Shown: positions 2,365-59,031 of the stretch, piece after piece
Position numbering within the stretch: position 1 is the first letter of the stretch
How the letters are laid out: every line of letters begins with the position of its first letter
NCBI GenBank assembly: GCA_965645245.1
Contig: OZ287077.1
Coordinates: 992,001-1,056,000 of the forward strand
DNA length: 64,000 nt
Direction of reading: 5' to 3'
Source: Massalongia carnosa
Lineage: Eukaryota
Position numbers and translations under genes: made by a program
Notes under the pieces: generated by a model
The model's input: the letters and a program-made list of their open reading frames with translations, nothing else
Databases searched by the model: none
What the model was told of the DNA's origin: nothing

Positions 2365-3094
2365 CTCTTATGTTACTTTAATTTCATGATATGTATGTAC
2401 CTGGCGTGCCGTGGCACCTACTTTGTGTCCTCAAATACTCTGTATGTTATGTTAGGTCTTAGGTTACTCCATATAGTATACTCTCCTAACTGCACACACA
2501 CATTCTCATCCTCACCAACTCGAGTTTACTCCGAATTACACAAGGATAATTTATTCAAAAATGTGCTTGATTGAACTCTGAATGAACCATGTAATCTTCA
2601 GTCATTTCAATCTCGTTTGGTAAAAAGGACAATTACAAAATAGTACGGAGATATTTTGTGTGGGAAATTTTTTTTTTTAACTCACCCGCGTAATATGTGT
2701 GCAGGTACAAATGGAAGTTTGTTGATCTCTTATGTGACGATTATTCCGAATAATCGCGCTAAGTGAAGATGAGTCTCGTTCTGTCAAATCTAGCCATCAA
2801 AACCATGTCAAAATTGACAAATATAAGGTCAAACAAACATCTTTCTCATTATAAAAACAGATGGTTATTACAAAAGACAATGGAGAAGACTTGAAAATCT
2901 AGTTGAACTACTCGCAGCAGCTCTAGCGAACAGTTTTTAGTGTTATAATTTCTGTTTGAACTCACTGAGTTCTGACATTGATAGATGAAAGATGTATTAT
3001 TGGGCTGTAGGTGTATTTTCATCTGCGAATGATTGTAAATTATCGCCTCCAATAGATATAATATATTAATAATTAGACCCCTTCAATAGCAATA

Positions 3095-3234
3095 GATCGC
3101 TTAGCTCAGCTGGTTAGAGCGTGGTGCTAATAGATATGACATCTGTCAACGCCAGTAAGTTTATCTTCTACATGACGCACATGGTACTAGCTAAAACTTT
3201 AAAGAGGTCGCGAGTTCGATCCTCGTAGTGATCA
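3095..3234 (+). tRNA. tRNA-Ile(AAT) interrupted by a canonical tRNA intron (~3133-3148) and a spliceosomal-type intron (3155-3204)
   Basis: Mature sequence GATCGCT-TA-GCTC-AGCTGGTTA-GAGC-G-TGGTG-CTAATAA-CGCCA-AGGTC-GCGAG-TTCGATC-CTCGT-AGTGATC-A; all four stems pair; A and B boxes intact; oligo-T run follows at ~3245-3256. Confidence 0.9.
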
Positions 3235-3244
3235 CCACCAAAAA

Positions 3245-3256
3245 TTTTTTCTTTTT
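3245..3256 (+). terminator. RNA polymerase III oligo-T terminator of the tRNA gene
   Basis: TTTTTTCTTTTT about 10 nt downstream of the discriminator base. Confidence 0.7.
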
Positions 3257-5244
3257 GTATGTACATCCCATTCAAACGCTTTCGAGAAAAGATGGTGACG
3301 TTTGTTATCTTACTACTATCCAAAGTTCCTCAGCGGCTTCAATACCCGTGCATGACATTCTGATCTATTCCTTGATTTCTTGCGGCTCTCTTCGACTCCC
3401 TTCCCTTAGGTGACTGCAGTAAATGTCAATTATTGGTTTGAGACATATGTAACACGCGTATCTATACATGTGAGCCAGCCATCGCTTCGTCATGAAAATT
3501 ACCGATCAGTACCGTTAGGTCGATCTCACATTTCAGGCGCTAAAAATCAGAAGTCATCGTAAAACGGCTGTCGAGACCATCACGAATTGGACGCGTTCTC
3601 ATCTGCACACAAAGTATCCGTATCCCTCAAATACATACGGAGTACATACTGGATGCTTGTTTGCACCGTTACTGGGTACCATCGAATGCTCTCTGTATGT
3701 AACAGTTAGAAGACCTTGCCTAGTTATACTATTTATTAGCACTTCAGAGAAACTTCAGCTCTCATAATTCCGTTCATTTTACCTTTGCCTTAGTGAGCAG
3801 AGTTTTGGCTGTAATAGCAGAGGCTACTCACCTTGGCTTGGTGGATACACCGCCAGCATACTGATTTCCGGAAGTGATGAGTTCGTACAATTGATAGGTG
3901 GTTAATACTGTGCCTCTTGTGATATACTGGTATCCGAGCCACCGCAAAAAAAATATCAGCGGAATACTTCTCGGTGTCAGTCCTTGCCAGCGTTTCTTAG
4001 CTTCCTCACCTCACGAGAAGCTCGCCGTACATCTATCAGGCGCGCTAACCCAGAAAGACCGAGTGTGATGGATTTCCTGAGTACCTCGCCCACCCTTAGG
4101 CCCTCAGAATGAACTTCTGAAAAGGTTGTCCTTCGTCAGTAAACCCAAATTTAAAGAAAAAGAAAGCGTTTCCGTGGAACTCGCAAACTCAGGAGACGCT
4201 TAAAATATCTGTAGCATCATGTTCAGATCGCTAATATATGTTTCTCCCAGTCCTTTCCGTCTCCGCTTTCGGGGCGTGCACTGTGTTCACGACCTCCGTA
4301 CCCTATAATTTGGCTCCAACAACGTACCTATCGCGCCAGGCGAGTACTTATATCTACCAAATGAATGCCTGGGCACCAACGGGATTTTAGGCTGCTGATC
4401 TCTTGGACGTTCCCTATGACTCTCCCACCCCCATCAAGATTGCCGGTTATCAGCACACAGCTTTCAAGTCCCCTCAGGAATCGCATCTCGCCGACACAAA
4501 TCTCTTGGGAGCTAACTTCGTCAATGCGTCCCCGCGTGCGTTTATGACCTAACTTTAGGGATAAGAGCGTAATGTTGCTTTTTGGGATGGACTGGGGATT
4601 TCCTCGGCGGGGGGAATGATTGAGCTTGCTTAATTGGGCAAATTGTGAAACTTTGACTTGGTGGAATTGGAAAGCTTCTGCTCGCTAGCTCTATGGGCAA
4701 CGGATCCTTCCCTTATTATTGCTGCAGCTTTATCACGGCACAAACTACATTCTAGTCCTGGCCATAAAGTACTCTATACTAGATCTTTCGAACCGCGATT
4801 TTTTGCGGACCATGCTATTGTGAAGCCCGAAAGCTGTACGCCTCCATTGGTGTTGTTGTGAGCGTTAAACACGATACGGAAAGTTAAGGCAGCGAGTTAT
4901 CCTACCCTAGAGTAAGTCACCCTCTACATAATCAATCCCGCTCTCGTCCGAGTCTCACCGAACGAACCCTATTGAAATTCTGCACAGGACCGAAAGAAGT
5001 ACGAGAAAGAAGGGGACGTAAAATCACGCCCAGTCCAAAGTCATCAATTCCCCCCCCGCACCTAGAAGCGCTGCATTTGTATCATTTCTCCATCAGCCTA
5101 TCTATCCCACATGAAAGATCACCCTATAGCTCTTCAGCTCCGGATTTGTCTTCGAGAAAAAAGCCTCCACTTTACTTAAAGGTTACAGAATATTTCAAGT
5201 TCTCGGATATCAATAAGGCCCCTTGAGATTTTCGTGCAGAGGGC

Positions 5245-16552: not shown

Positions 16553-19086
<2,534 letters not shown>

Positions 19087-34816: not shown

Positions 34817-36670
34817 TTATTCCTTGAGAAGTTGCTGGAGGACAGCAATCTGCTCCAGTATACTTGATTTGCTCTAGCCGGATCCATCAGATTGAATGGG
34901 TTTTCGCACTACGCCAGGTTGGGGTGAAGGAAAGAGCTTACGGTTCCACCCGTTGCAGTTCGCATCTCCACGCTCTTCTCATGGTCAAAGACAAAGTCTG
35001 CTCCCAATCTCTTGTCCACCGATTGAAGATCCTTGTGCGAGAGCTTGTCCATGGGCGTACACTTCTTCTCCGCCAAGGCTACCACTTGACCGGAGATATG
35101 ATGAGTTTCGCGAAACGGCACACCCTTTCGGACAAGGTAGTCTGCAAGATCTTGGTGGAGTATTAGTGAAAGCGTTGGTGGCTGCTCGGACGTACATAGT
35201 GGGGACAGACCTGTAGCTAGCATATCCGGCGTTATGGCAGCAAGCATATCTCCAGGTTGAATGGTCAAGGTGCTCATCACGCCTGTCAGGATTTGGATTG
35301 AGTCACCTACTGTCTTCACACAGTCTAGTAGCGGCTCAACTGACTCTTGTAAATCCCTGGTCCCTTGTTAGAATTTGGTTTATCCTTATTGGGGCGGAAA
35401 TTTGATATATACATACTTGTTATATGTAGATGGTAGACCCTGTATAACAGCTTCATTTAGTGGCAAGGAACGACTAAGTCTAGGTATTGAGTGCTTACTT
35501 TGGTTGAGACCATAAGTCCAACCATCTGGCCGATGACTCGGCCGCTCTTTCCTCGCAACAGCTCTAAGCTATCAGGGTTTTTCTAAACCTGCGTTAGAAG
35601 CAAGAAACAAACCGAGCCACAAACGAAGGATAAACCACCTTCTGCGGCATCAGCGAGCTTCCGGTGCTATACGCGTCTGCAAGTTTGACAAAACCAAACT
35701 CAGCGGTGCTGTATATGATGAGGTCTTCGCTTATCCTCGAGACATCCCCCATAAGCTCTGCTGCCCATTGCATTGTCTCAACTGCGAATTTTCGGTCTCC
35801 AACTGCACCCAGCGAGTTCATCAATAATCCCTCGAATCCTAGCTCTTTCGCCATTGCTTCTCGGTCGACTCCAAAAGGATTTCCCGCCAGGGCTCCGCAA
35901 CCCAACGGGCTCTTATTTACCCTCTTAATGACCTCTCTTAACCTTTCCAGATCCGAAGCGAAAGCAAAAGCATAGCTGCATATCCAATGTGACCAGCGAA
36001 TCGGCTGGGCTCTTTGTAGGTGTGTATAGCCAGGCATACAGACATCTATCTCAACCTTTGCTCGCGCAGTCATTGCTTTTACTAACTCTTCGGACCATTT
36101 CTCGATCTTCCGTAGTTCTTGTACAAGCCATAACCTGGATATAGGTTAGGTCATATGATAGACGTCGATAAAAGGTTATTACCTCATATCTGTTGCAATC
36201 TGTAATATTACATTAATACCGTCTCTAGACATAACACTTTCAACTTACCTGTTCATTCCTTGACCTTCCCGTGTGCAATTTTCCTCCAATCTCTTTCCCC
36301 ACAAGCTCCGATAAACGTCGTTCATTCGCGGTATGGATGTCTTCGTCTACTCCCGGCCTGATATTGAATCTGCCATCCTCCCATTCTTTCTTTACCTGAT
36401 TTAACCCTTCCTCTATGGTGGAGAACTCCTTCGCAGAAATAATACCACGATGATGGTTTGCTCGTGCCCAGGCTACAGACCCAGCAATATCTTGGGCATA
36501 AAAGGCCCGATCGTAGAATATTGACTGATTATATTCTATCATCAACGGATCCAGGCCGCCTTTAAAACATTAGTCTGAATAACGGAAACGATTGGACGTT
36601 GAAGCGGTTTACCTGTGAAGCGGCCGCCCCATAGCTTGCCCGACGCACTACTATTTGGCTGATCCTGCAT
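34817..36670 (-). CDS. ARG4: Argininosuccinate lyase, many short exons
   Basis: [75 protein letters not shown]; last exon [18 protein letters not shown]. Confidence 0.96.
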
Positions 36671-37007
36671 ACTTATTTGGCGGCAATTTCTGTTTGAACA
36701 AAAAACTATTGGTCAAAGAATCAATGGAAACTCGGTGTGGGTACTTTTGAAAAAGAATTTTAAATATTTTGACAGTCAGGATTCTATGAAGGCATTGGTG
36801 TGGATTTAAATACTTAATTAGTCTCGTACGCTTTACTTTACAATGAGCCCATTTAACTCATCACGTGCAAGTGCCTTTCGTTTAAACCCTCAGGTACTCT
36901 GTATGTATTTACATTTGGGGTTCAATTGCAACATTGTCACGTGAGAAAATATGTTGAAAGAAGGTACTACATTGTTTGACCTCAGAGTTTGAGACATAGT
37001 TGGAAAG

Positions 37008-38681
37008 ATGCCTACCCTGAGCTTCACGCTTTTGCCAGAGGGCGTTTCCCGAGTTCATGATGCCGTTGTATGCCTCTCGAAATTCAGCGAGTCAGTGTCT
37101 ATAGAAGCTCGTCATGACAAAGTGGGTATCTGATCTTGAGGGAGTAGGCATTATGCTGATGCCTACGTATTTTTAGTTTGTTCTAACTGCTTTAAACTCA
37201 TCAAAATCTGCATATGCATCTTTTTGTCTTGATAAGACGGCCTTCTTTGAAAAGTATTGTTACGGCTCCACTCAATCCAGGGCGTGGCAAGCTCGTGGCG
37301 ACGCGGAGCCACGTTTCACCTGCCAAGTTTATAATAAAGTATTTTCAAGATTTCTGTTCTACATTTTCCGAAGATTTGACCCGGTTTGATTCAGGCGCTG
37401 CTTTCGGTATTTAGATCGCGCCTGCTAGATGTCCGAGAAAGAAATGCTGCGGTAGAAAAATGCGAGGTTTCCGTTCAAGAACAATCTGACAAGACCGAAT
37501 GCCGCTTGGTGGTCAAGCTAATTTGTAGACATGGTGTGTTGGTTGGGCTTCTCTTCAAGGTTTTTCTAATAATATGGCTCGCCGCAAGGAGTCACAAAGA
37601 CGTACAAACTCACCTATGAGTCGGTAGAGGTCATGCAGGCTTTGTTTGACAAGAATTCCGCAAAGAACAAATGGCAGATCAGTGCAAGCATACTACGATC
37701 ATTTATCGAATATTTCGGGGCCAATACGGAACAGCTTGATATGTACTCAGAGGGCGGGCGTGCTCAGTTCACAAGCTATACCGAAAAGATCATGAACGGA
37801 AAGGGTTAGATAAGGCATTTGCTTGACAAGATTTATTTTCTAATGAGTGGTAGAGGTCTTGAAACAACCGTTGCAAACCTGTGTTGCCATAGATGTGCTG
37901 GAATTTGAGAGTTTTAACGTAGAGGAAAGAGTCCATATTGGCATAAGCGTTAAAGACTTCAAATCCATTGTTTTGCATGCCGAAACGCTCAAAGCAAGCA
38001 TCGCTGCCTCGTTCTCCCGGCCAAGTCATCCCATGCAGTTGTCATACCGCGAACGTGGAATGCAATGTGAGTTTACGCTCATGACCACTGGAGAATACCG
38101 CGGCGGCTCTGTAACACCTGCTCCTGCTGTGGCTCAGAACTCTTCAGCAACGCCAAGCGATCGACAAGCCCCACGCCAATCTCCCGCCACCCAGTCGTTG
38201 ACCGAAAAGCTTCCTCGAGAATCGAGCAATGCGATGCCTCCCCCAACTCAGCCAGCATCACGCAGTTTCGCTCGAGAGTTTCCAAGTCAACGGCCACCTA
38301 GACCATCTCCGCCGCCGCCCAAAGCCAGCCTGGATGAAGAAAGCTTGTTTATTCCAGCTGAGAGCAATGATGATCGGAGATGGGGCGAAAAAATTTTCGA
38401 CGAAGATGAAGATATCCTAGGATGGGATCCAAATGCTGAAAATGTCGGAATTCCTGTTTCGTAAGCATTGATATTTGCTTATCATAATCTAGGCATCTCT
38501 TTCAATTGGTCTAGGTGACTCTCGCGAAGACTTAAAGACTTCATCAAGATTAGGTGAATGGCCAGATGGCAATGAGGAGCGTTTGGCGCCTACTCAACGA
38601 CTCTCAGAGGTATATGATTTGATATTCTTGGCTGGTTATTCACTGATTGCTCTCAAGATAACTACTTTGTTTGGCGAATGA
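37008..38681 (+). CDS. rad9: 9-1-1 checkpoint clamp subunit Rad9/Ddc1, multi-exon
   Basis: HDAVVCLSKFSESVSIEA, LTALNSSKSAYASF, CRLVVKLICRHG, LKQPLQTCVAID, HIGISVKDFKSIVLHAE; Pro/Ser-rich acidic tail. Confidence 0.88.
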
Positions 38682-51527: not shown

Positions 51528-53199
51528 ATGGCCCGACCATCTTCCCCCACCTCGTTATCTCCCAACTCCTCCGCGCCGCCTCCTGCGGAACCACAGGATC
51601 GCAACAGTGCCAATCAGCAACATCCTTTCCGCCCCAAACTCACCTTTGCTGAGCTGGAAACGCGGCGCCCTTCGGTGCAGTTCGCCGCCCCGAATGATCG
51701 GGGCCTGCGCGCGGCGAACGCGAAGCCACATCCGTCGCAGCCTTTGAGGAGGATGTCCTCGCCTCCACCGCCTTCGTAAGTGATCAATCCAGCCGCACCT
51801 GGCGCAGCATTTCTCATTGGGGTGTTGTTGGCCATGTACGTGAGATGTGTGATTGGTTTCTGCCTCGTCAGTGACATTTTCCGACACAGGGCGCGAGACG
51901 CTAAACTCGCTTAAAAGGAGCTGCTAAAAAGTCGGGGTTTCAGTTACCCAACTATCGGGAGACGTTATCGATATCTAATCTGGTGTTTGCATTATCGCAT
52001 TATCGATAGCAATTCTTACGCTGACTGTTGCCAACCTTGTACCAAGTAGGACCTACGAAAATCGCGTGTCGTTCAATACCTTTGATAATCGCGATGCCAC
52101 GGACTTTTCTTTCTCGTTGGCTTCAAAGCACAAAAACTATTCATACAGTTCGAGATCTCGTACTTTTCTGTGCGGGACGGACCAAAATGACTATTCGGAA
52201 TTTGCGCTGGAATGGCTGTTGGATGAGTTGGTGGAGGATGGAGATGAGATCGTGTGCTTGAGGGTGGTCGACAAGGATAGCAAGATCAACAGCGATGCCA
52301 GTGTGCAGCAAGGCAGATACAAGGTCGAGGCTCGAAAGCTCCTGGAGCATATTCAGGAGAAGAACCAACAGGATGCAAAGTGTATCAGCTTGATCTTAGA
52401 ATATGCTCTTGGGAAGGTCCCGGAGACCATTCAACGGATGGTTTGTGCCCATCACCCGTTTCTCGATGTGCGGGTAAAAGGGTCCATGTTGACGCACAGA
52501 TGCCTCTAGATCACCATATACTCTCCTGCTTGCCTCATCGTCGGAACACGTGGTCGCTCCCTCGGTGGTTTTCAAGGTCTACTTCCTGGCTCGGTCTCTA
52601 AATACTGCCTGCAGAACTCCCCCGTCCCGGTGGTTGTTGTCCGCCCCAGTAACAAGCGCGAGAAGAAGAAGCAAAAACGTCGCGAAGATCCAAGGAGGCA
52701 AAGCTACCGCAGCATATTGGAGCAAAGCGGCGCGGATGGAAGCCAAATGCTCGATAAAGGGGAAGGGGAGACGATGGTTCGGCACCCTGGTGGCGAGGCC
52801 AGCGAGAACGAAGCCGACGCCGTTGCGAGAGCAATCGGCGCTTTCACCGAGTATCAGAAAAAGCCAAGCGGCCAAGATGGCGAGGAAACCCTGTCGCGAG
52901 TTGCAAGTTCCAAAAGTAACTATACAAGCGGTCCAGATAGCCCTGGCCCGACCGGACGTTTGAGCCCGGACGAGCCAACGCCAGGCGACTCGATCACTCC
53001 CGAGTTCGCGGCATTGAACACTCCAGAAATGAGCGAGGAGGAAGACGAGGGTAACGAGGCGGTCGATGAGGACGTTGATGAGGAGGCCGATGATGAAAGG
53101 CGGGTCCGGAAGAAAGCACCCATCCTTAAAGCAAGGAAGATGGAAGCCGGGGAAGGGAAGTATTTGAAGCCCGACTCCAGCATCACCGATGACACATGA
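51528..53199 (+). CDS. Universal stress protein (Usp) domain protein (exons ~51528-51775, 52050-52440, 52510-53199)
   Basis: SRTFLCGTDQNDYSEFALEWLLDELVEDGDEIVCLRVV, LIVGTRGRSLGGFQGLLPGSVSKYCLQNSPVPVVVVRP. Confidence 0.88.
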
Positions 53200-53218
53200 A
53201 GGGCCTGTAAGTTTCACA

Positions 53219-53287
53219 GGCTGTTGGCATAAGTTGTTGGCATAGGCTGTTGGCATAGGCTGTTGGCATAGGCTGTTGGCATAGGCT
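53219..53287 (+). repeat. 14-bp tandem repeat GGCTGTTGGCATAG-like, about 5 units
   Basis: ggctgttggcataagttgttggcataggctgttggcataggctgttggcataggctgttggcataggct just after the Usp stop codon. Confidence 0.9.
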
Positions 53288-53568
53288 ACGATGTAATGGA
53301 ATACCCCTACGCTTGTGCCAAGCGGATGCTGATGGAGATTACGTTGGAGTTGATAACCCATCGAACCACCTACACCGACGTGCTGTCAATGTGAAACCAA
53401 ATAAATGCTACCTTTGCCTATTTCTTACCCGTAGTGCCGTATCTATTCGTACTCGCCACGCCGGGTCCATGTTTTGCCTCAAATCGCCTTTTCAATAACA
53501 GTCTCGTCGGAAGCACACCAAAGCACATAAACACGCCGGATGAATCGGATCTCTTGCGCGACGCATCA

Positions 53569-55221
53569 ATGGTCTCCATGACCGGCGATTGCGACGACTG
53601 TGTGCCTGGGCGCCCGATTCAGGCTCCTACAGCAATACTATCCTCGTCTCTGCCGTTCCTGGTCACTTTCCTTGTCGTTTCCGCCCTCGTTTTCCAAAAA
53701 CTATTCCCAATCCTTTCCGGCGATGCTGCATCCAAAGGCCGCGAGGCGCAAGCTTCATCGAAGAATGGCCACATTCGTCCGCCACCGTCCCTGAGCCTCG
53801 CCGGTCAGGCACGGCCTCAAATCAAGCGATTATCCGCCCTCGCCTTCTCCACAACCATTGCGCTGGCTGCGGTGCTTGCGGAGCTGATCCTATGCGAGAT
53901 CTCGAATACCATCAACCCCACGGCGCGGAGGCTAGCGTTTCATGTCACTGTCTCTCTGCTCCTCTTCCTCCTCGTAATCGCCATTCCCCTCCTCGAAATC
54001 CACTCCATCGTCATAGCCGCGGGATGGGAGTTTACAGGAAACAAAAAGGGAAGACTCAGGCTGGCATGGCTGTTACAACTCGCGGGATTTATCGCATGGC
54101 TGCTCGGATTCTGGTGGAGCGGGGAACGACTGCTCGGTCAACCCAATCTAAAACGACCCGTTGAGCACCCCCAAAGCCTCAGCGAAGCCTGCCTCGAACG
54201 GGTGGGCATCATCGGCATCTCCCTCATGTCTCTCCTCTCGGGCTTCGCCTCGGTTAGCTCCCCCTGGCAAACCTTTGGCTCGCGCCCCCGCCCCGTCACC
54301 GACACCGACCTCGCCCGCAAACAAGCCGGTCTGGACGCCACGATCGACATGCTCGCAGCTAAACAAGCGCGACTCCACATGCTTGAGCGGAAAATGTCCG
54401 AAGCAGCCCCCGGAACGTTTTTTCAAAAAGCGCTCGGCTCCATCCGCGGCACTGCCGACCAGACCGAGCGCAAAGCCCTCGAGCTCGAGATCTCCGGCCT
54501 GCAAACCATGGCCTGCTCCCTCTCCGCCACGTACGCCCTCCTTCAATCACGTCTTCGCCAGCAGTCCCGCTCCCGCACCCCGACCGGCCGCCTCCTCCTC
54601 GTAGTCTCTTACCTCTTCTCCCTCTTCTGCCTCTCTCGCATCATCACTACCTCTCTCGCCGCCGCTCGCCGCATCCTGCGCGCCGCTCCCGTCCCCTCGT
54701 CCTCCTCCCCGTCGTCCGACCCCATCACCCACGCCCTCGCCCTCCTCGCCAAGCATTACGACCCCCATCTCAACCAAGGCGCCTGGGCCCGCCAAATCTC
54801 CTTCCTCCTTTCGGGCATCATCCTTTTCGCCTCCTTCTCCTCCGCCCTCCAGACCTTCCACCTCCTCGCCCGATTCGCGCCCGGCCTCCTACGTGCCGTA
54901 CGCGCCAACCTAGCCCTTGTCGTCGCCCAGCTGTGCGCCGCCTACGTCATCAGCGCCGCGCTCATGCTGCGTGGCATGATGCCCGGCCAGGTGGTCGGCG
55001 AGGGGCTGAGGGGCTTGGGCGGCAGGGAAGAGATGGGGTGGGTGGATGGGTGGTTTGAGGCTTGGTTCTTGGGCGGGGCAGCGGTGACGGCGACGGGGAT
55101 CTGGGTAGGGAGGAGGCTTGGAGGTGGAGGGTGGGAGGACGAGGAGTGGGAGGTGGAAGGGGGTGGTAGTGGTGGTGGTAGTGGTGGTGGTGGTGGTGGT
55201 GGTGGGGGGAAGATGTTGTAA
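53569..55221 (+). CDS. GPR89/Golgi pH regulator (ABA-GPCR-like) membrane protein
   Basis: Multiple TM segments; LAELILCEI, CLERVGIIGISLMSLLSGFASVSSPW, SDPITHALALL, RQISFLLSGIIL, YVISAALMLR; single exon. Confidence 0.85.
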   Translation: MVSMTGDCDDCVPGRPIQAPTAILSSSLPFLVTFLVVSALVFQKLFPILSGDAASKGREAQASSKNGHIRPPPSLSLAGQARPQIKRLSALAFSTTIALAAVLAELILCEISNTINPTARRLAFHVTVSLLLFLLVIAIPLLEIHSIVIAAGWEFTGNKKGRLRLAWLLQLAGFIAWLLGFWWSGERLLGQPNLKRPVEHPQSLSEACLERVGIIGISLMSLLSGFASVSSPWQTFGSRPRPVTDTDLARKQAGLDATIDMLAAKQARLHMLERKMSEAAPGTFFQKALGSIRGTADQTERKALELEISGLQTMACSLSATYALLQSRLRQQSRSRTPTGRLLLVVSYLFSLFCLSRIITTSLAAARRILRAAPVPSSSSPSSDPITHALALLAKHYDPHLNQGAWARQISFLLSGIILFASFSSALQTFHLLARFAPGLLRAVRANLALVVAQLCAAYVISAALMLRGMMPGQVVGEGLRGLGGREEMGWVDGWFEAWFLGGAAVTATGIWVGRRLGGGGWEDEEWEVEGGGSGGGSGGGGGGGGGKML

Positions 55222-55614
55222 AGTTGGGGGGCGGGGGGGGCGAGGGGGAACCTGTTTTTTCTTTGTAGAATACTGTTGATTGAATTGGGTCACAACTGCT
55301 TGGGTGGAAAGATGGACGGGCGAGTGGGTTTCGGGGCTTGGGTCGGGAGGCGTGCGGATTAATTGCATCCACATCTACCAGGGAAAGCGGAGTATTGGCA
55401 GGGTATGGTACGGTGGTAACTTACCTGGACCACAACAAAAATGTAATTCTTCTTCCCTTCTGCTTGAGAGGGTGTGCGGTTTGTGTTTGCATCCCATTTC
55501 CCGCCTTCGCCCTCACGCCTTTCCTCCCTGCAGGCTCTCCCCTCCCAAGACGCTATGCGGGGGAAAAAGAACCCTAAAAAGCAAAACGAAAACCCCCCCG
55601 AACGGAAAATCAAA

Positions 55615-57206
55615 TCAAATCAGCTTCAACCGAAACCCTCCGCCCCTCTCCTCCTCCTCCTCCCTCCGCCCGAAAATCCCCCGAAAATCCCCCTCCTCGC
55701 CCCGGATGCGCGGTGCATGCTGGCCCCTCCTCGGTGCAGAGGGGCTCGCCACGCGGCGCGCGCGGCGCTCCTGGCCGGCCTTGGACGGGAAGGTGGGGAA
55801 CATGCGCGCGGCTTTGGGCTTGGGGTCTTCGGCGAAATACGGGTGGGCCAGCACGGCAGCGGCGCTGGGCGGCCGGGCGGCTGGGTTGAGCGCTAGGAGG
55901 GAGGTGAGCAGGGAGGCGCCGGAGGCGGTGAGGAGGGGGAATTGCGCGCGCAGGATCGGGCCGGTGGTACGGGCGGTGGGGAGGGGGAGGCGGAGCGATT
56001 TGGCGTTTGGGAGGCGTTTGAAGGTTGGCCATGTGGTGGGCGTGGGGATGCCGCAGAGTTCGAAGATCTAGGGGTTTGGTTGGTTGGGGGAGAAAATAAA
56101 GGAGAAAGGGGGTGGGTGGGTTTGGATGGGTAGGTACCTTGGAGAGCTGGTCGACTTCGTTCTTTCCCTGGAGGAGGGGCTCTTTTTTCAAAAGTTCGCC
56201 GAATATGCAGCCGATGCTCCACAGGTCGATCTCGGCGCCGTACGTCTCCGCCCCTAGAAGCAGTTCCGGCGCGCGGTACCAGAGCGTGACGACCAGCTGC
56301 GTGAGCTTCGCGGGCGGAGGGTCGCCGTGATAGCGCGCCATGCCGAAATCGGCCACTTTCAGTTGCCCGCGATTGTTCATGAGGAGGTTGGACGTCTTCA
56401 GGTCGCGGTGCAGGATCCAATTGGAGTGCAGGTAGTCGACCGCGGAGGTGAGTTGGAGGAGAAGGGTCTTGATCTCCGAGGGGAGGAAGGGCTCTTGCAT
56501 TTCTTCCTGCAGCGTTTTGAGGTCGTGTTCGATGAAATCCATGACAAGGAAGACGCTGGTCTTGAAGATCAGTTTTGCGGAAGCAGGAGATAGTCAAGGC
56601 CCCGTGGCAGGGGGTTAGGAGAGAGGGGATTTACTCGTCTAAACTGTCGCCCATGACCACTTCACGTAGAGCAACTATATTCGGGTGCAGGGAGGCGCGT
56701 AGGGTCTGTATCTCGCGCAAGCCGGTGACGGGGAATCCGTCGTTGGCGTTGTCCATCTTGAGCTTTTTGAGCGCCACCACTTCCCCCGTAGCGATCTCTT
56801 TGGCCCTCGATACCCATCCGTAAGAGCCCTCTTCGATGTGATTCAGCTTCTCGAAGTTGTCCACATGGCGGCAAGGGCCCCATTCCGGTGCTGGGAAGCG
56901 GAGGAGCTTGGCCGGTTGTGATTTAGTCGTTGGAGCTGGAACGTTGGGCTCTGGGGAAAGTCTCCTTCTCTTCAATGGACGATCGGTATCCCCATTTGCA
57001 CTGCTGTTGTCGTTGCCTGGCTCGTCTGACAGTGCAGCCGCGCGGAGAGATTCCTGCTGCCGGGCGTTATCCGCCGCCTCCAGCTTCCGCTGCTTTTCCG
57101 CCTTTACCCTTCTCTTTTCGTCCTTCTCCAATTTTCGCTGGGCGTTCAGGGCACTGTCCTTTTCATCATCGGCCCAGCGGGATTTGATTTGACTTGCCAT
57201 CTGCAT
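55615..57206 (-). CDS. CDK11/PITSLRE-like cyclin-dependent kinase (3 exons)
   Basis: [71 protein letters not shown]. Confidence 0.92.
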
Positions 57207-57344: not shown

Positions 57345-59031
57345 ATGATTCTGAGAGCATGTGCGAGAGTGTCAAAAAGCCAAAGATCACTCGGAAGCAT
57401 AAATCAATGTTCTTGTAGACCTTTACACCACAAATGGTCTTCATCCTCAACTCGGCAATGGTCCACTCCCCTTGCCAAGAACATTGCAGAAGCAATCGCT
57501 GTAAGTCACACTAGACATACTCCCAGACCATTGACTGATCGCGCCCATCAGACTACCGGCCCCATTTCCATAGCGTCGTACATGCGCCAATGCCTCACTT
57601 CCCCCGGCGGCGGCTACTACACCTCTCATACCCATGGCAAGGACCAATTCGGGCAAAAAGGTGACTTCATCACCTCGCCCGAAATCTCGCAGATCTTTGG
57701 CGAACTATTGGGTATTTGGATGGTGGCGGAATGGATGGCGCAGGGGGAAATAAGCCATGGGGTGGAAATCATTGAGGTTGGGCCGGGGAGGGGAACACTG
57801 ATGGATGATATGCTACGGGTATGGTATGAACCTTAGCCTGGACAGGCAAGGCATGGAACTGATGCGCCGCATAGACCCTCGGCAACTTCAAGTCCTTGGT
57901 ATCGAGCATTGAACAAGTCTATCTCGTTGAAGCAAGTCCCTCGTTGAGAGATGCCCAGAAGCGACTTCTATGTGGAGATGCTCCCCTCAAAGCCGTCGAG
58001 ATCGGATTTCGAAGCACGAGCAAATATTCCAACCTCCCAATAATATGGTGTGAAGACATCCGCTTTGTCCCCAATGGTATGCCCTCTTCTTCCGTCCACC
58101 ACACGACTCTAACCCCTGCTCAGACCCATCCAGGACCCCATACATATTCGCCCACGAGTTCTTCGACGCACTACCAATCCATGCTTTCCAATCAGTCGTT
58201 CCTGCCCCGTCAACTCAGACAATTATCACCACAACAGGTCCTCTTCATCTCTCCACTCCCCAAAAGCCACCCACCCCCCAATGGCGCGAACTAGTCGTCT
58301 CCCCCGCGCCCCTCCCATCGACCATCGCCACCTCCACAACCTCCACCCCTCAGCCTCCAGATTTCCAACTCTCCCTCTCCAAAACCCCCACAACCTCCTC
58401 CATCCTCCTCCCCACCCTCTCCCCTCGCTACGCCGCCCTCCTCCCGACCTCGTCCGCCCACATCGAAATATCCCCCGAATCCCGCTCCTACATCGCCGAC
58501 TTTGCCCACCGAATTAGTGGCTCGCCAACCTTACCTCCCAAATCCAAACGCACTACCACCCCAACCCCGCCATTCAGAAGGAAACCTCACCCTTCTGGCG
58601 CAGCGCTGATCTTTGACTACGGCCCCTTCAGCACCATCCCCGCCTCCACCCTCCGCGGCATCCGCGCGCACAAACTCGTCTCGCCCTTCTCCTCCCCAGG
58701 GCTCGTCGATCTGAGCGCCGATGTTGATTTCACCGCGCTAGCGGAAGCAGCCCTGCGCGCGAGCGATGGAGTGGAGGTGCATGGGCCTGTGGAGCAAGGG
58801 GGGTGGTTGGAGGAGATGGGGATTCACGAGAGAGGGGAGATGATTTGTCAGGGAGGAGGAGAAGGAGGGGAGAAGGAAGAGCGCGGGAAAAGGGTAAGAA
58901 GGGGAGTGGAGAGGTTGGTGGAGAGGGGCGGAGGGGGGATGGGACGCATCTACAAGGTCCTGGCTATTTTACCGGAGAACGGCGGGAGGCGGAGACCCGT
59001 TGGGTTTGGGGACCGGGTGGCGACGGGGTAG
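57345..59031 (+). CDS. NDUFAF7/MidA SAM-dependent arginine methyltransferase, multi-exon
   Basis: GPISIASYMRQCLTSPGGGYY, GDFITSPEISQIFGELLG, IEVGPGRGTLMDD, AHEFFDALP, DYG, DLSADVDF, GMGRIYKVLAI. Confidence 0.9.

Follow-up and report, generated by a model that had tools for sequence, protein, structure and literature searches.

Three unrelated types of introns are distinguished in the available text of a 2025 article (PMC12530127), which places the introns of spliceosomal type in mRNAs and further transcripts of RNA polymerase II (Pol II), and has tRNA introns removed by the tRNA endonuclease. The accessible part of PMC5855946 lists spliceosomal introns in the genes of U6, U2, U5 and U1 snRNA and of rRNA, and describes the determinants of intron insertion into non-coding RNAs as unclear. 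For lichen-forming fungi, ectopic spliceosomal introns have been described in the rDNA, and yeast removed such an intron from Pol I transcripts, as reported in the part available of Armaleo and Chiou 2021 (PMC8527467); their presence in ascomycete nuclear rDNA is also credited to Bhattacharya et al. 2000, known to us as a citation. For tRNA introns, the text available of PMC3978253 states that in archaea and Cyanidioschyzon the endonuclease depends on a bulge-helix-bulge (BHB) motif, made of two 3-nt bulges around a 4-bp helix.

An earlier note on the DNA described here, made from the letters alone, held that no well-described case of a spliceosomal intron exists in a nuclear tRNA. The literature searched agrees with it: no report of a spliceosomal intron in a nuclear tRNA gene was found by a full-text search, the range of which leaves out most subscription journals and does not prove absence from print. 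The term 'spliceosom' is absent from the text of two reviews, one from 2014 on tRNA introns (PMC4090602) and one from 2026 on photosynthetic tRNA gene repertoires (PMC13578239), and the term 'tRNA' is absent from that of PMC8527467. Nothing was added on spliceosomal introns in nuclear tRNA genes by PMC11782384 and PMC6652019. Spliceosomal splicing of a pre-tRNA that RNA polymerase III (Pol III) has made is without precedent in the literature found, which counts against the reading favoured below.

The window, by which the whole analysed stretch of 64,000 nucleotides is meant, carries a tRNA-Ile(AAT) gene at 3095-3234 of the plus strand, split by two inserts of 16 nt (position 37/38 of the tRNA) and 50 nt (position 43/44). 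Exon 1 (3095-3132) holds the 5' strand of the acceptor stem, the D arm with the A box, the 5' strand of the anticodon stem, the anticodon AAT at 3129-3131 and position 37. It is followed by insert 1 (3133-3148), which is of the canonical tRNA type by position, and by exon 2 (3149-3154), the 6 nt ACGCCA that supply position 38 and the 3' strand of the anticodon stem. Insert 2 (3155-3204), of the spliceosomal GT-AG type by its signals, separates exon 2 from exon 3 (3205-3234), where the variable loop AGGTC, the T arm with the B box, the 3' strand of the acceptor stem and the discriminator A are found. The acceptor stem GATCGCT/AGTGATC has 7 pairs, one of them G-T; the D stem is GCTC/GAGC, the anticodon stem TGGTG/CGCCA with one T-G pair, and the T arm GCGAG-TTCGATC-CTCGT.

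The earlier note had proposed this two-insert cloverleaf, with stems, A and B boxes and an oligo-T terminator all intact. Each of its features was confirmed by reading 2950-3400, including the T6 run at 3245-3250, and the Rfam tRNA model (RF00005) aligned the regions of both boxes. The match of this model to 3095-3234 reaches 36.2 bits (gathering score 29, E 6.2e-4); the D, T and acceptor arms are covered, while in the region of the anticodon arm 83 nt are passed over, against 17 positions of the model. Neither at gathering thresholds nor with E up to 1 do the 64 kb contain another Rfam match. A loose B-box pattern matched the window four times, and a T stem accompanies it only at this gene.

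The parse into three exons and two inserts was compared with uninterrupted genes. The comparison set (L010-L020, n=11) contains every exact match to the 21-nt 5' half of the gene in two other collections, namely 2 short contigs in bacterial assemblies and 9 contigs of a viral collection. The 2 contigs from bacterial assemblies look like stray eukaryotic DNA. In 11/11 of these genes CTAATA is followed by ACGCCA and then by AGG with no gap, and the joined exons of the window equal L010 at 55 of the 58 positions between 8 and 65. Joined exons of the L002 type fold into a full cloverleaf. Since cutting exactly both inserts restores a widely conserved tRNA-Ile(AAT) junction, the two-insert parse is not arbitrary. 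For insert 2, the cut bounded by GT and AG is the only one that restores the junction, and a shift by a single base breaks it.

Related copies were collected from metagenome contigs by a pattern made of the 5' half of the gene, a gap of 0-30 bases, ACGCCA and one non-A base, a design that is blind to uninterrupted genes. Nine loci (L001-L009) were obtained from six assemblies, and all nine are the same two-insert gene: the acceptor stem is the same, the insert at 37/38 measures 10-18 nt, the insert at 43/44 measures 49-50 nt, and the Rfam tRNA model scores 36.5-37.3 bits. Together with the window they make 10 copies; the six assemblies have neighbouring accession prefixes and the copies are related, so that the statistics given below count lineages that are not independent. 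About five lineages can be told apart by sequence (the window; L002/L004; L006/L007; L001/L003/L008; L005/L009), and neighbouring lineages are 82-86% identical over their alignable parts.

An element upstream of the gene, at 2706-2987 of the window, is matched by BLAST at 75-77% identity in seven of the nine loci. It is missing from L006 and L007, which share by BLAST a downstream flank with L002 and L004. The common upstream element and the common downstream flank indicate that the copies represent one syntenic locus. The reading of the relatives as scattered paralogues was rejected, on account of the upstream element that they share with the window.

The claim of the earlier note that standard tRNA finders miss such genes holds for one of the two tools used and fails for the other. 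ARAGORN found 0/10 of the interrupted copies, that of the window included, whereas it called tRNA-Ile(aat) in 3/3 uninterrupted controls; the Rfam covariance model found all 10. Since ARAGORN misses every copy, genomes of this kind may be wrongly reported to lack tRNA-Ile(AAU).

Insert 1 is present at 37/38 in the window and in all 9 relatives, where it is 10-18 nt long. Its sequence is free, being 19-63% identical between deep lineages, and its ends vary. For the window, L002 and L006, the fold predicted after deletion of insert 2 consists of the anticodon stem, an anticodon-intron helix and 3-nt loops, and a 3-nt bulge holds the 3' splice site of insert 1. In all of these features insert 1 behaves, as far as its sequence tells, like an ordinary nuclear tRNA intron of the endonuclease type. 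Its variable ends also mean that exon borders are not conserved as such, which makes it an internal control for the signals of insert 2.

The GTRNGT-like hexamer is the consensus of the 5' splice site of U2-type spliceosomal introns. Insert 2 begins with the donor GTAAGT (3155-3160). A branch-like GCTAAA occupies 3190-3195, and its branch-type A (3194) is 10 nt from the end of the insert, where AAG supplies the acceptor AG at 3203-3204. Insert 2 is 49-50 nt long in 10/10 copies. The donor is GTAAGT in six copies and GTAAGA in the other four, so that GTAAG is invariant, as is the terminal AG. A CTRA motif lies 10-12 nt before the end in 9/10 copies, the exception being L005 with TTGA. Compared with the fungal CTRAY, the final Y is confined to 4 copies, which have CTGAT; CTAAA, CTGAG or CTGAA occurs in the others, and TTGAA in L005. 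In 10/10 copies the tRNA is restored by the first AG that lies at least 5 nt past the branch A. The departures from CTRAY, and the base 5' of the donor, which is A and not the commoner G, count against a spliceosomal reading.

These signals were compared with those of mRNA introns from the same window. Intron discovery by flanking open frames was no better than in shuffled sequences (20 candidates vs 10-19; 444 vs 42-129). Introns were instead verified by the continuity of a Pfam profile over the junction, which was obtained for 3 of 9 candidates, the other 6 having no usable domain on both sides. The first, at 58077-58123 (47 nt), has GTATGC, CTAAC 11 nt from the end and CAG, and interrupts Methyltransf_28 (profile positions 43-87, then 93-249). 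The second, at 37534-37588 (55 nt), has GTGTGT, CTAAT 19 nt from the end and AAG, and lies in Rad9 (profile 66-105, then 107-175). The third, at 18040-18087 (48 nt), has GTGAGC, CTGAC 8 nt from the end and AAG, and belongs to a DEAD-box helicase, with the DEAD domain upstream and Helicase_C resuming from profile position 45 at residue 2 downstream. Insert 2 falls into the same range of lengths. That it follows the same grammar as the mRNA introns of the window, a point raised before from the letters alone, is borne out by the three verified introns, from which it deviates only in the last letter of the branch motif. Taken together, the signals support the identification of insert 2 as a spliceosomal-type (GT-AG) intron, and from them we infer that it is spliced.

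An alternative is that the gene is functional and that insert 2 leaves by an endonuclease-ligase route, cut by the tRNA endonuclease at a non-canonical site or by an unknown enzyme. Non-canonical tRNA introns of eukaryotes are indeed removed without a spliceosome in nucleomorphs and in C. merolae, according to the accessible parts of PMC4090602 and PMC3978253, and the endonuclease would already be needed by the same transcript for insert 1. However, a BHB motif is absent at the junctions of insert 2 in 9/9 distinct copies, where 1-2 of 4 pairs form in the central helix and a single one of 2 in the outer helix, and insert 2 has no conserved secondary structure. The letters that are conserved are GTAAG, CTRA and AG, the last one in agreement with the first-AG rule in all ten copies, and the endonuclease needs none of these. 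Removal by this route is therefore considered quite unlikely.

Class II tRNAs carry a long variable arm in their variable region. Insert 2 sits one base before the site of that arm, and a loop at this place would be topologically compatible with the L shape. The 50 nt could be retained, so that the variable region would open with a giant extra arm, giving an odd tRNA or a tRNA-like RNA with another role. The folding of insert 2 speaks against such an arm: over five lineages it is no more stable than in shuffled sequences (z between -1.4 and +0.6), the minimum free energy structures differ between lineages, and the consensus fold amounts to a few pairs at -2.8 kcal/mol with no conserved hairpin. 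Its interior also diverges freely, while the letters expected for splicing stay fixed. A retained arm is for these reasons extremely improbable, and a structured one was rejected, there being no conserved fold and a stability like that of shuffles.

A functional gene with insert 2 as a spliceosomal-type intron is supported also by the way in which the different parts of the gene diverge. Between deep lineages, 72-74 of the 74 exon positions are identical (97-100%), while identity falls to 48-54% in insert 2 and to 20-69% in the nearest 100-nt flanks (30-53% for the upstream one). Of the exon positions, 27 were fixed by the search pattern, which by itself set the conservation of exon 2, leaving 47 positions free to vary; among these 47, two columns are variable, 16 in the D loop and 60 in the T loop. 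Column 16 is C in the window and T in the other copies, the rest of exon 1 being identical in the 10 copies. Exon 3, which lies outside the search pattern, is identical in all of them save for column 60. If these 47 sites diverged like insert 2, the probability of seeing no more than 2 differences would be about 1.5e-12, which rules out a decaying pseudogene. The view that this is not a decayed copy is thereby upheld, and a functional gene is supported, as far as can be judged from patterns of divergence.

Within the alignment of insert 2, 14 of 52 columns are invariant. The signal columns, defined as GTAAG, AG and the branch-motif letters C, T and A, account for 9 of them (9/10), against 5/42 for the other columns; the corresponding Fisher test (4.9e-6) is descriptive only, owing to the kinship of the sequences and to a search pattern that partly determined the first G. 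The earlier note had named orthologous loci with conserved signals and a diverged interior as a check, and a lack of such conservation in relatives as a refutation. The outcome favours its reading, as the nine contigs keep GTAAG, AG and, with the exception already given for L005, CTRA while the interior of insert 2 diverges. The exons are thus under purifying selection, and the three splice signals are selectively conserved in a diverging intron.

Conservation of the exons could have a different origin if insertion had inactivated the copy, so that it makes no tRNA, and its exons were kept for a role at the DNA level, for example as a boundary bound by TFIIIC, or were kept alike by gene conversion from intact copies. 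Intact uninterrupted tRNA-Ile(AAT) genes may exist in these genomes, since the scan pattern excluded them, and, as the available text of the Yoshihisa review has it (PMC4090602), eukaryotic tRNA genes that are odd in having non-canonical inserts are as a rule regarded as pseudogenes. Conservation, however, extends over all 74 exon positions and not over the A and B boxes only; both inserts, the terminator and the TATA-like element described below persist in about five lineages; and the inserts would tend to be lost if uninterrupted copies converted the gene. The conservation of splice signals in insert 2 is left unexplained by an inactivated copy, which we regard as very unlikely. A redundant and tolerated copy is conceivable, and would need some other reason for the conservation of its exons.

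Four public sequencing runs, none of them on record as RNA, provided contigs that were aligned to 2400-4000. No contig joined the sequences on both sides of either insert (X4 has no coverage of 3190-3214). A relative diverged by about 1% (X5), from a run labelled as lichen metagenome, keeps both inserts, its sole change within the gene being T>C at 3198, in insert 2. Besides the locus itself, one low-depth contig aligned to the exons, and it carries an uninterrupted tRNA-Ile(AAT). With a depth of 2 as compared to 405, this contig is attributed to another organism. The lack of further high-depth contigs on the exons was not counted as evidence for a single copy, the matches being of about 30 nt.

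The signals expected for transcription by Pol III are found around the gene. A TATA-like element at 3056-3067 of the plus strand includes ATATAA, TATAAT and TATATT, at -39 to -28 of the tRNA start, and a TATA-like hexamer occurs between -39 and -30 in 10/10 copies despite the divergence of the upstream flank; it is presumably a promoter element. Downstream, a terminator-like oligo-T tract at 3245-3256 of the same strand consists of T6, C and T5, and a run of 5-8 T begins 5-36 nt downstream of the gene in all ten copies. Runs of 4 or more T are absent from all precursors, which is not significant, the probability of finding no TTTT being 0.49-0.85 per lineage in shuffles. On both strands, 2400-5100 is free of overlap with open reading frames of at least 70 codons, and its stop-to-stop frames are short. 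As neither a long frame nor a recognisable gene extends over it, the tRNA-Ile gene is considered intergenic.

The conserved upstream element lies 110-390 nt upstream of the tRNA in 8/10 copies. No frame stands out in a six-frame comparison, and it is regarded as non-coding; no credible match was found in Rfam, the best having E = 2; and no fold is supported, as the covariation term is unfavourable and 2 of 66 pairs are compensatory. The element leaves a minor possibility of a longer transcript made by Pol II. According to such a scheme, a longer non-coding RNA would lose the GT-AG intron co-transcriptionally, and the tRNA would be freed by RNase P and RNase Z. Several observations could be accommodated: spliceosomal introns are normally tied to Pol II transcripts, as stated in the parts available of PMC12530127 and PMC8527467; the TATA-like element, at -30 to -39, could suit either polymerase; and a conserved non-coding element at that distance fits a longer transcript. 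Set against them are the oligo-T run directly behind the gene in 10/10 copies, the intact A and B boxes, the lack of a long frame or recognisable gene over the tRNA on either strand, and the lack of an RNA family match or a supported fold in the upstream element. Transcription by Pol II is hence unlikely, though it would alter the first step of the favoured explanation only and would leave the nature of the intron unchanged.

The explanation that is favoured, and that we hold to be probably correct on the strength of these sequence comparisons, is that an ascomycete-like fungus in lichen samples has here a nuclear tRNA-Ile(AAU) gene that works, and that the transcript of this gene contains two unlike introns. 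Pol III, or less likely Pol II, would make a precursor of about 150-190 nt. Pol III would start downstream of the TATA-like element, by way of the internal A and B boxes, and stop at the oligo-T tract. GUAAGU, the branch motif CURA and the AG that comes first downstream of it would then be recognised by the spliceosome, and the intron of 49-50 nt taken out. This step would restore CGCCA-AGGUC and leave an ordinary intron-containing pre-tRNA, the ends of which would be trimmed afterwards. Insert 1 would finally be cut by the tRNA splicing endonuclease, the halves being joined by the tRNA ligase, and A34 would be deaminated to inosine, as is usual in tRNA-Ile(AAU). The spliceosomal step is placed first because it is nuclear and because the insert at 43/44 interrupts the core from which the endonuclease measures. 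What we infer here is the splicing itself, its order relative to the cut at 37/38, and the polymerase.

A more far-reaching proposal, which is possible but on the whole doubtful, is that the two-intron gene is the sole source of tRNA-Ile(IAU) in these fungi, so that the decoding of AUU and AUC would depend obligatorily on the action of the spliceosome on a Pol III transcript, and that it is part of a wider spliceosomal colonisation of the stable-RNA genes of lichen fungi. If so, the capacity for translation would be tied to the availability of the spliceosome, in line with the throttling of lichen growth by rDNA introns discussed in the available part of PMC8527467; with regard to wider colonisation, the rRNA case is already known and the tRNA would be the new one.

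If the favoured explanation is true, this tRNA would be the first known to depend on two unrelated splicing machineries, and the substrates of the spliceosome among Pol III transcripts would extend past U6. The gene would then also provide a natural test of intron gain in abundant non-coding RNAs that do not lie near the spliceosomal active site, a question called open in the text available of PMC5855946, and would connect with the idea that growth is held back by the ectopic introns of lichen-fungal rRNA genes.

Among the known systems, the canonical nuclear tRNA introns at 37/38, as presented in the parts available of PMC4090602 and PMC12530127, are matched by insert 1 in position, length (10-18 nt), free sequence and anticodon-intron helix. 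Insert 2 differs from them by its place at 43/44, by its spliceosomal signals and by the absence of a structure for the endonuclease. More than one intron, with one outside the anticodon loop, is a feature shared with tRNAs of archaea, Cyanidioschyzon merolae and nucleomorphs, according to what is accessible of PMC3978253 and PMC4090602. The introns of those tRNAs are, however, defined by a BHB motif or very short, whereas insert 2 has no BHB and combines GT, branch motif and AG with the length of the mRNA introns of its host.

The ectopic introns in the rDNA of lichen fungi and other ascomycetes, known to us from the same accessible part of PMC8527467, are of the same class and likewise reside in a stable-RNA gene outside Pol II; the host group is taken to be the same, because one run is labelled as lichen metagenome. 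Their host RNA is rRNA, a product of Pol I, whereas here it is a tRNA. A further likeness exists to the introns that fission yeast and other fungi have in U6 (Tani and Ohshima 1989, 1991, cited via the available text of PMC5855946), where a short GT-AG intron interrupts a small stable Pol III RNA and the spliceosome must act on a transcript not made by Pol II, as is proposed for tRNA-Ile. Unlike the tRNA, U6 sits in the spliceosomal active site, and its introns are explained by reverse splicing into nearby RNA; U6 also has no second intron of another class, which the tRNA-Ile gene does have. Ectopic spliceosomal introns in stable-RNA genes are known as such, and what would be new at this locus is the tRNA as a host and the combination with a canonical tRNA intron.

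The two-intron tRNA-Ile(AAT) gene (window 3095-3234, + strand) is preceded, 110-390 nt on its 5' side, by a block of about 280 nt (window 2706-2987), which is retained with 75-77% identity in seven of the nine metagenome loci carrying the same gene (at 115-407 in locus L001, 172-395 in L002 and 877-1157 in L005), and is absent within the available sequence of the other two, L006 and L007. No coding frame stands out in the block, a search of Rfam gave a best E-value of 2, and the covariation term of its consensus fold was unfavourable.

Two of the metagenome lineages, L001/L003/L008 and L005/L009, are 83% identical over 743 nt, comprising the upstream element and the tRNA, and become unrelated immediately 3' of the tRNA gene. 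Both versions co-occur in the same assemblies (prefixes JAABUI and JAABUP), one of which also contains the L004 type. This pattern has two readings: a single sample contained several related fungi, or a segmental duplication has the tRNA gene as its endpoint.

An uninterrupted tRNA-Ile(AAT) is carried by a 7.7-kb contig from a public sequencing run (X1), aligning to window 3100-3132. Its acceptor stem differs from that of the window gene, and the contig has a depth of 2, versus 405 for the window's own contig; it probably derives from a second, rare eukaryote of the same sample.

Elsewhere, GC content reaches 0.58 in window 52001-56000, compared to 0.43-0.53 across the rest, and long ORFs overlap there on both strands (53434-55221, +; 55610-56542, -). 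Short-intron genes of the ordinary fungal kind were observed at four places, encoding a DEAD-box helicase (window 17025-18572), the C-terminus of an argininosuccinate lyase (34912-35355), a Rad9 homologue (36993-37806), which appears to contain an additional frame change or intron near 37380, and a Methyltransf_28 protein (57875-59028).
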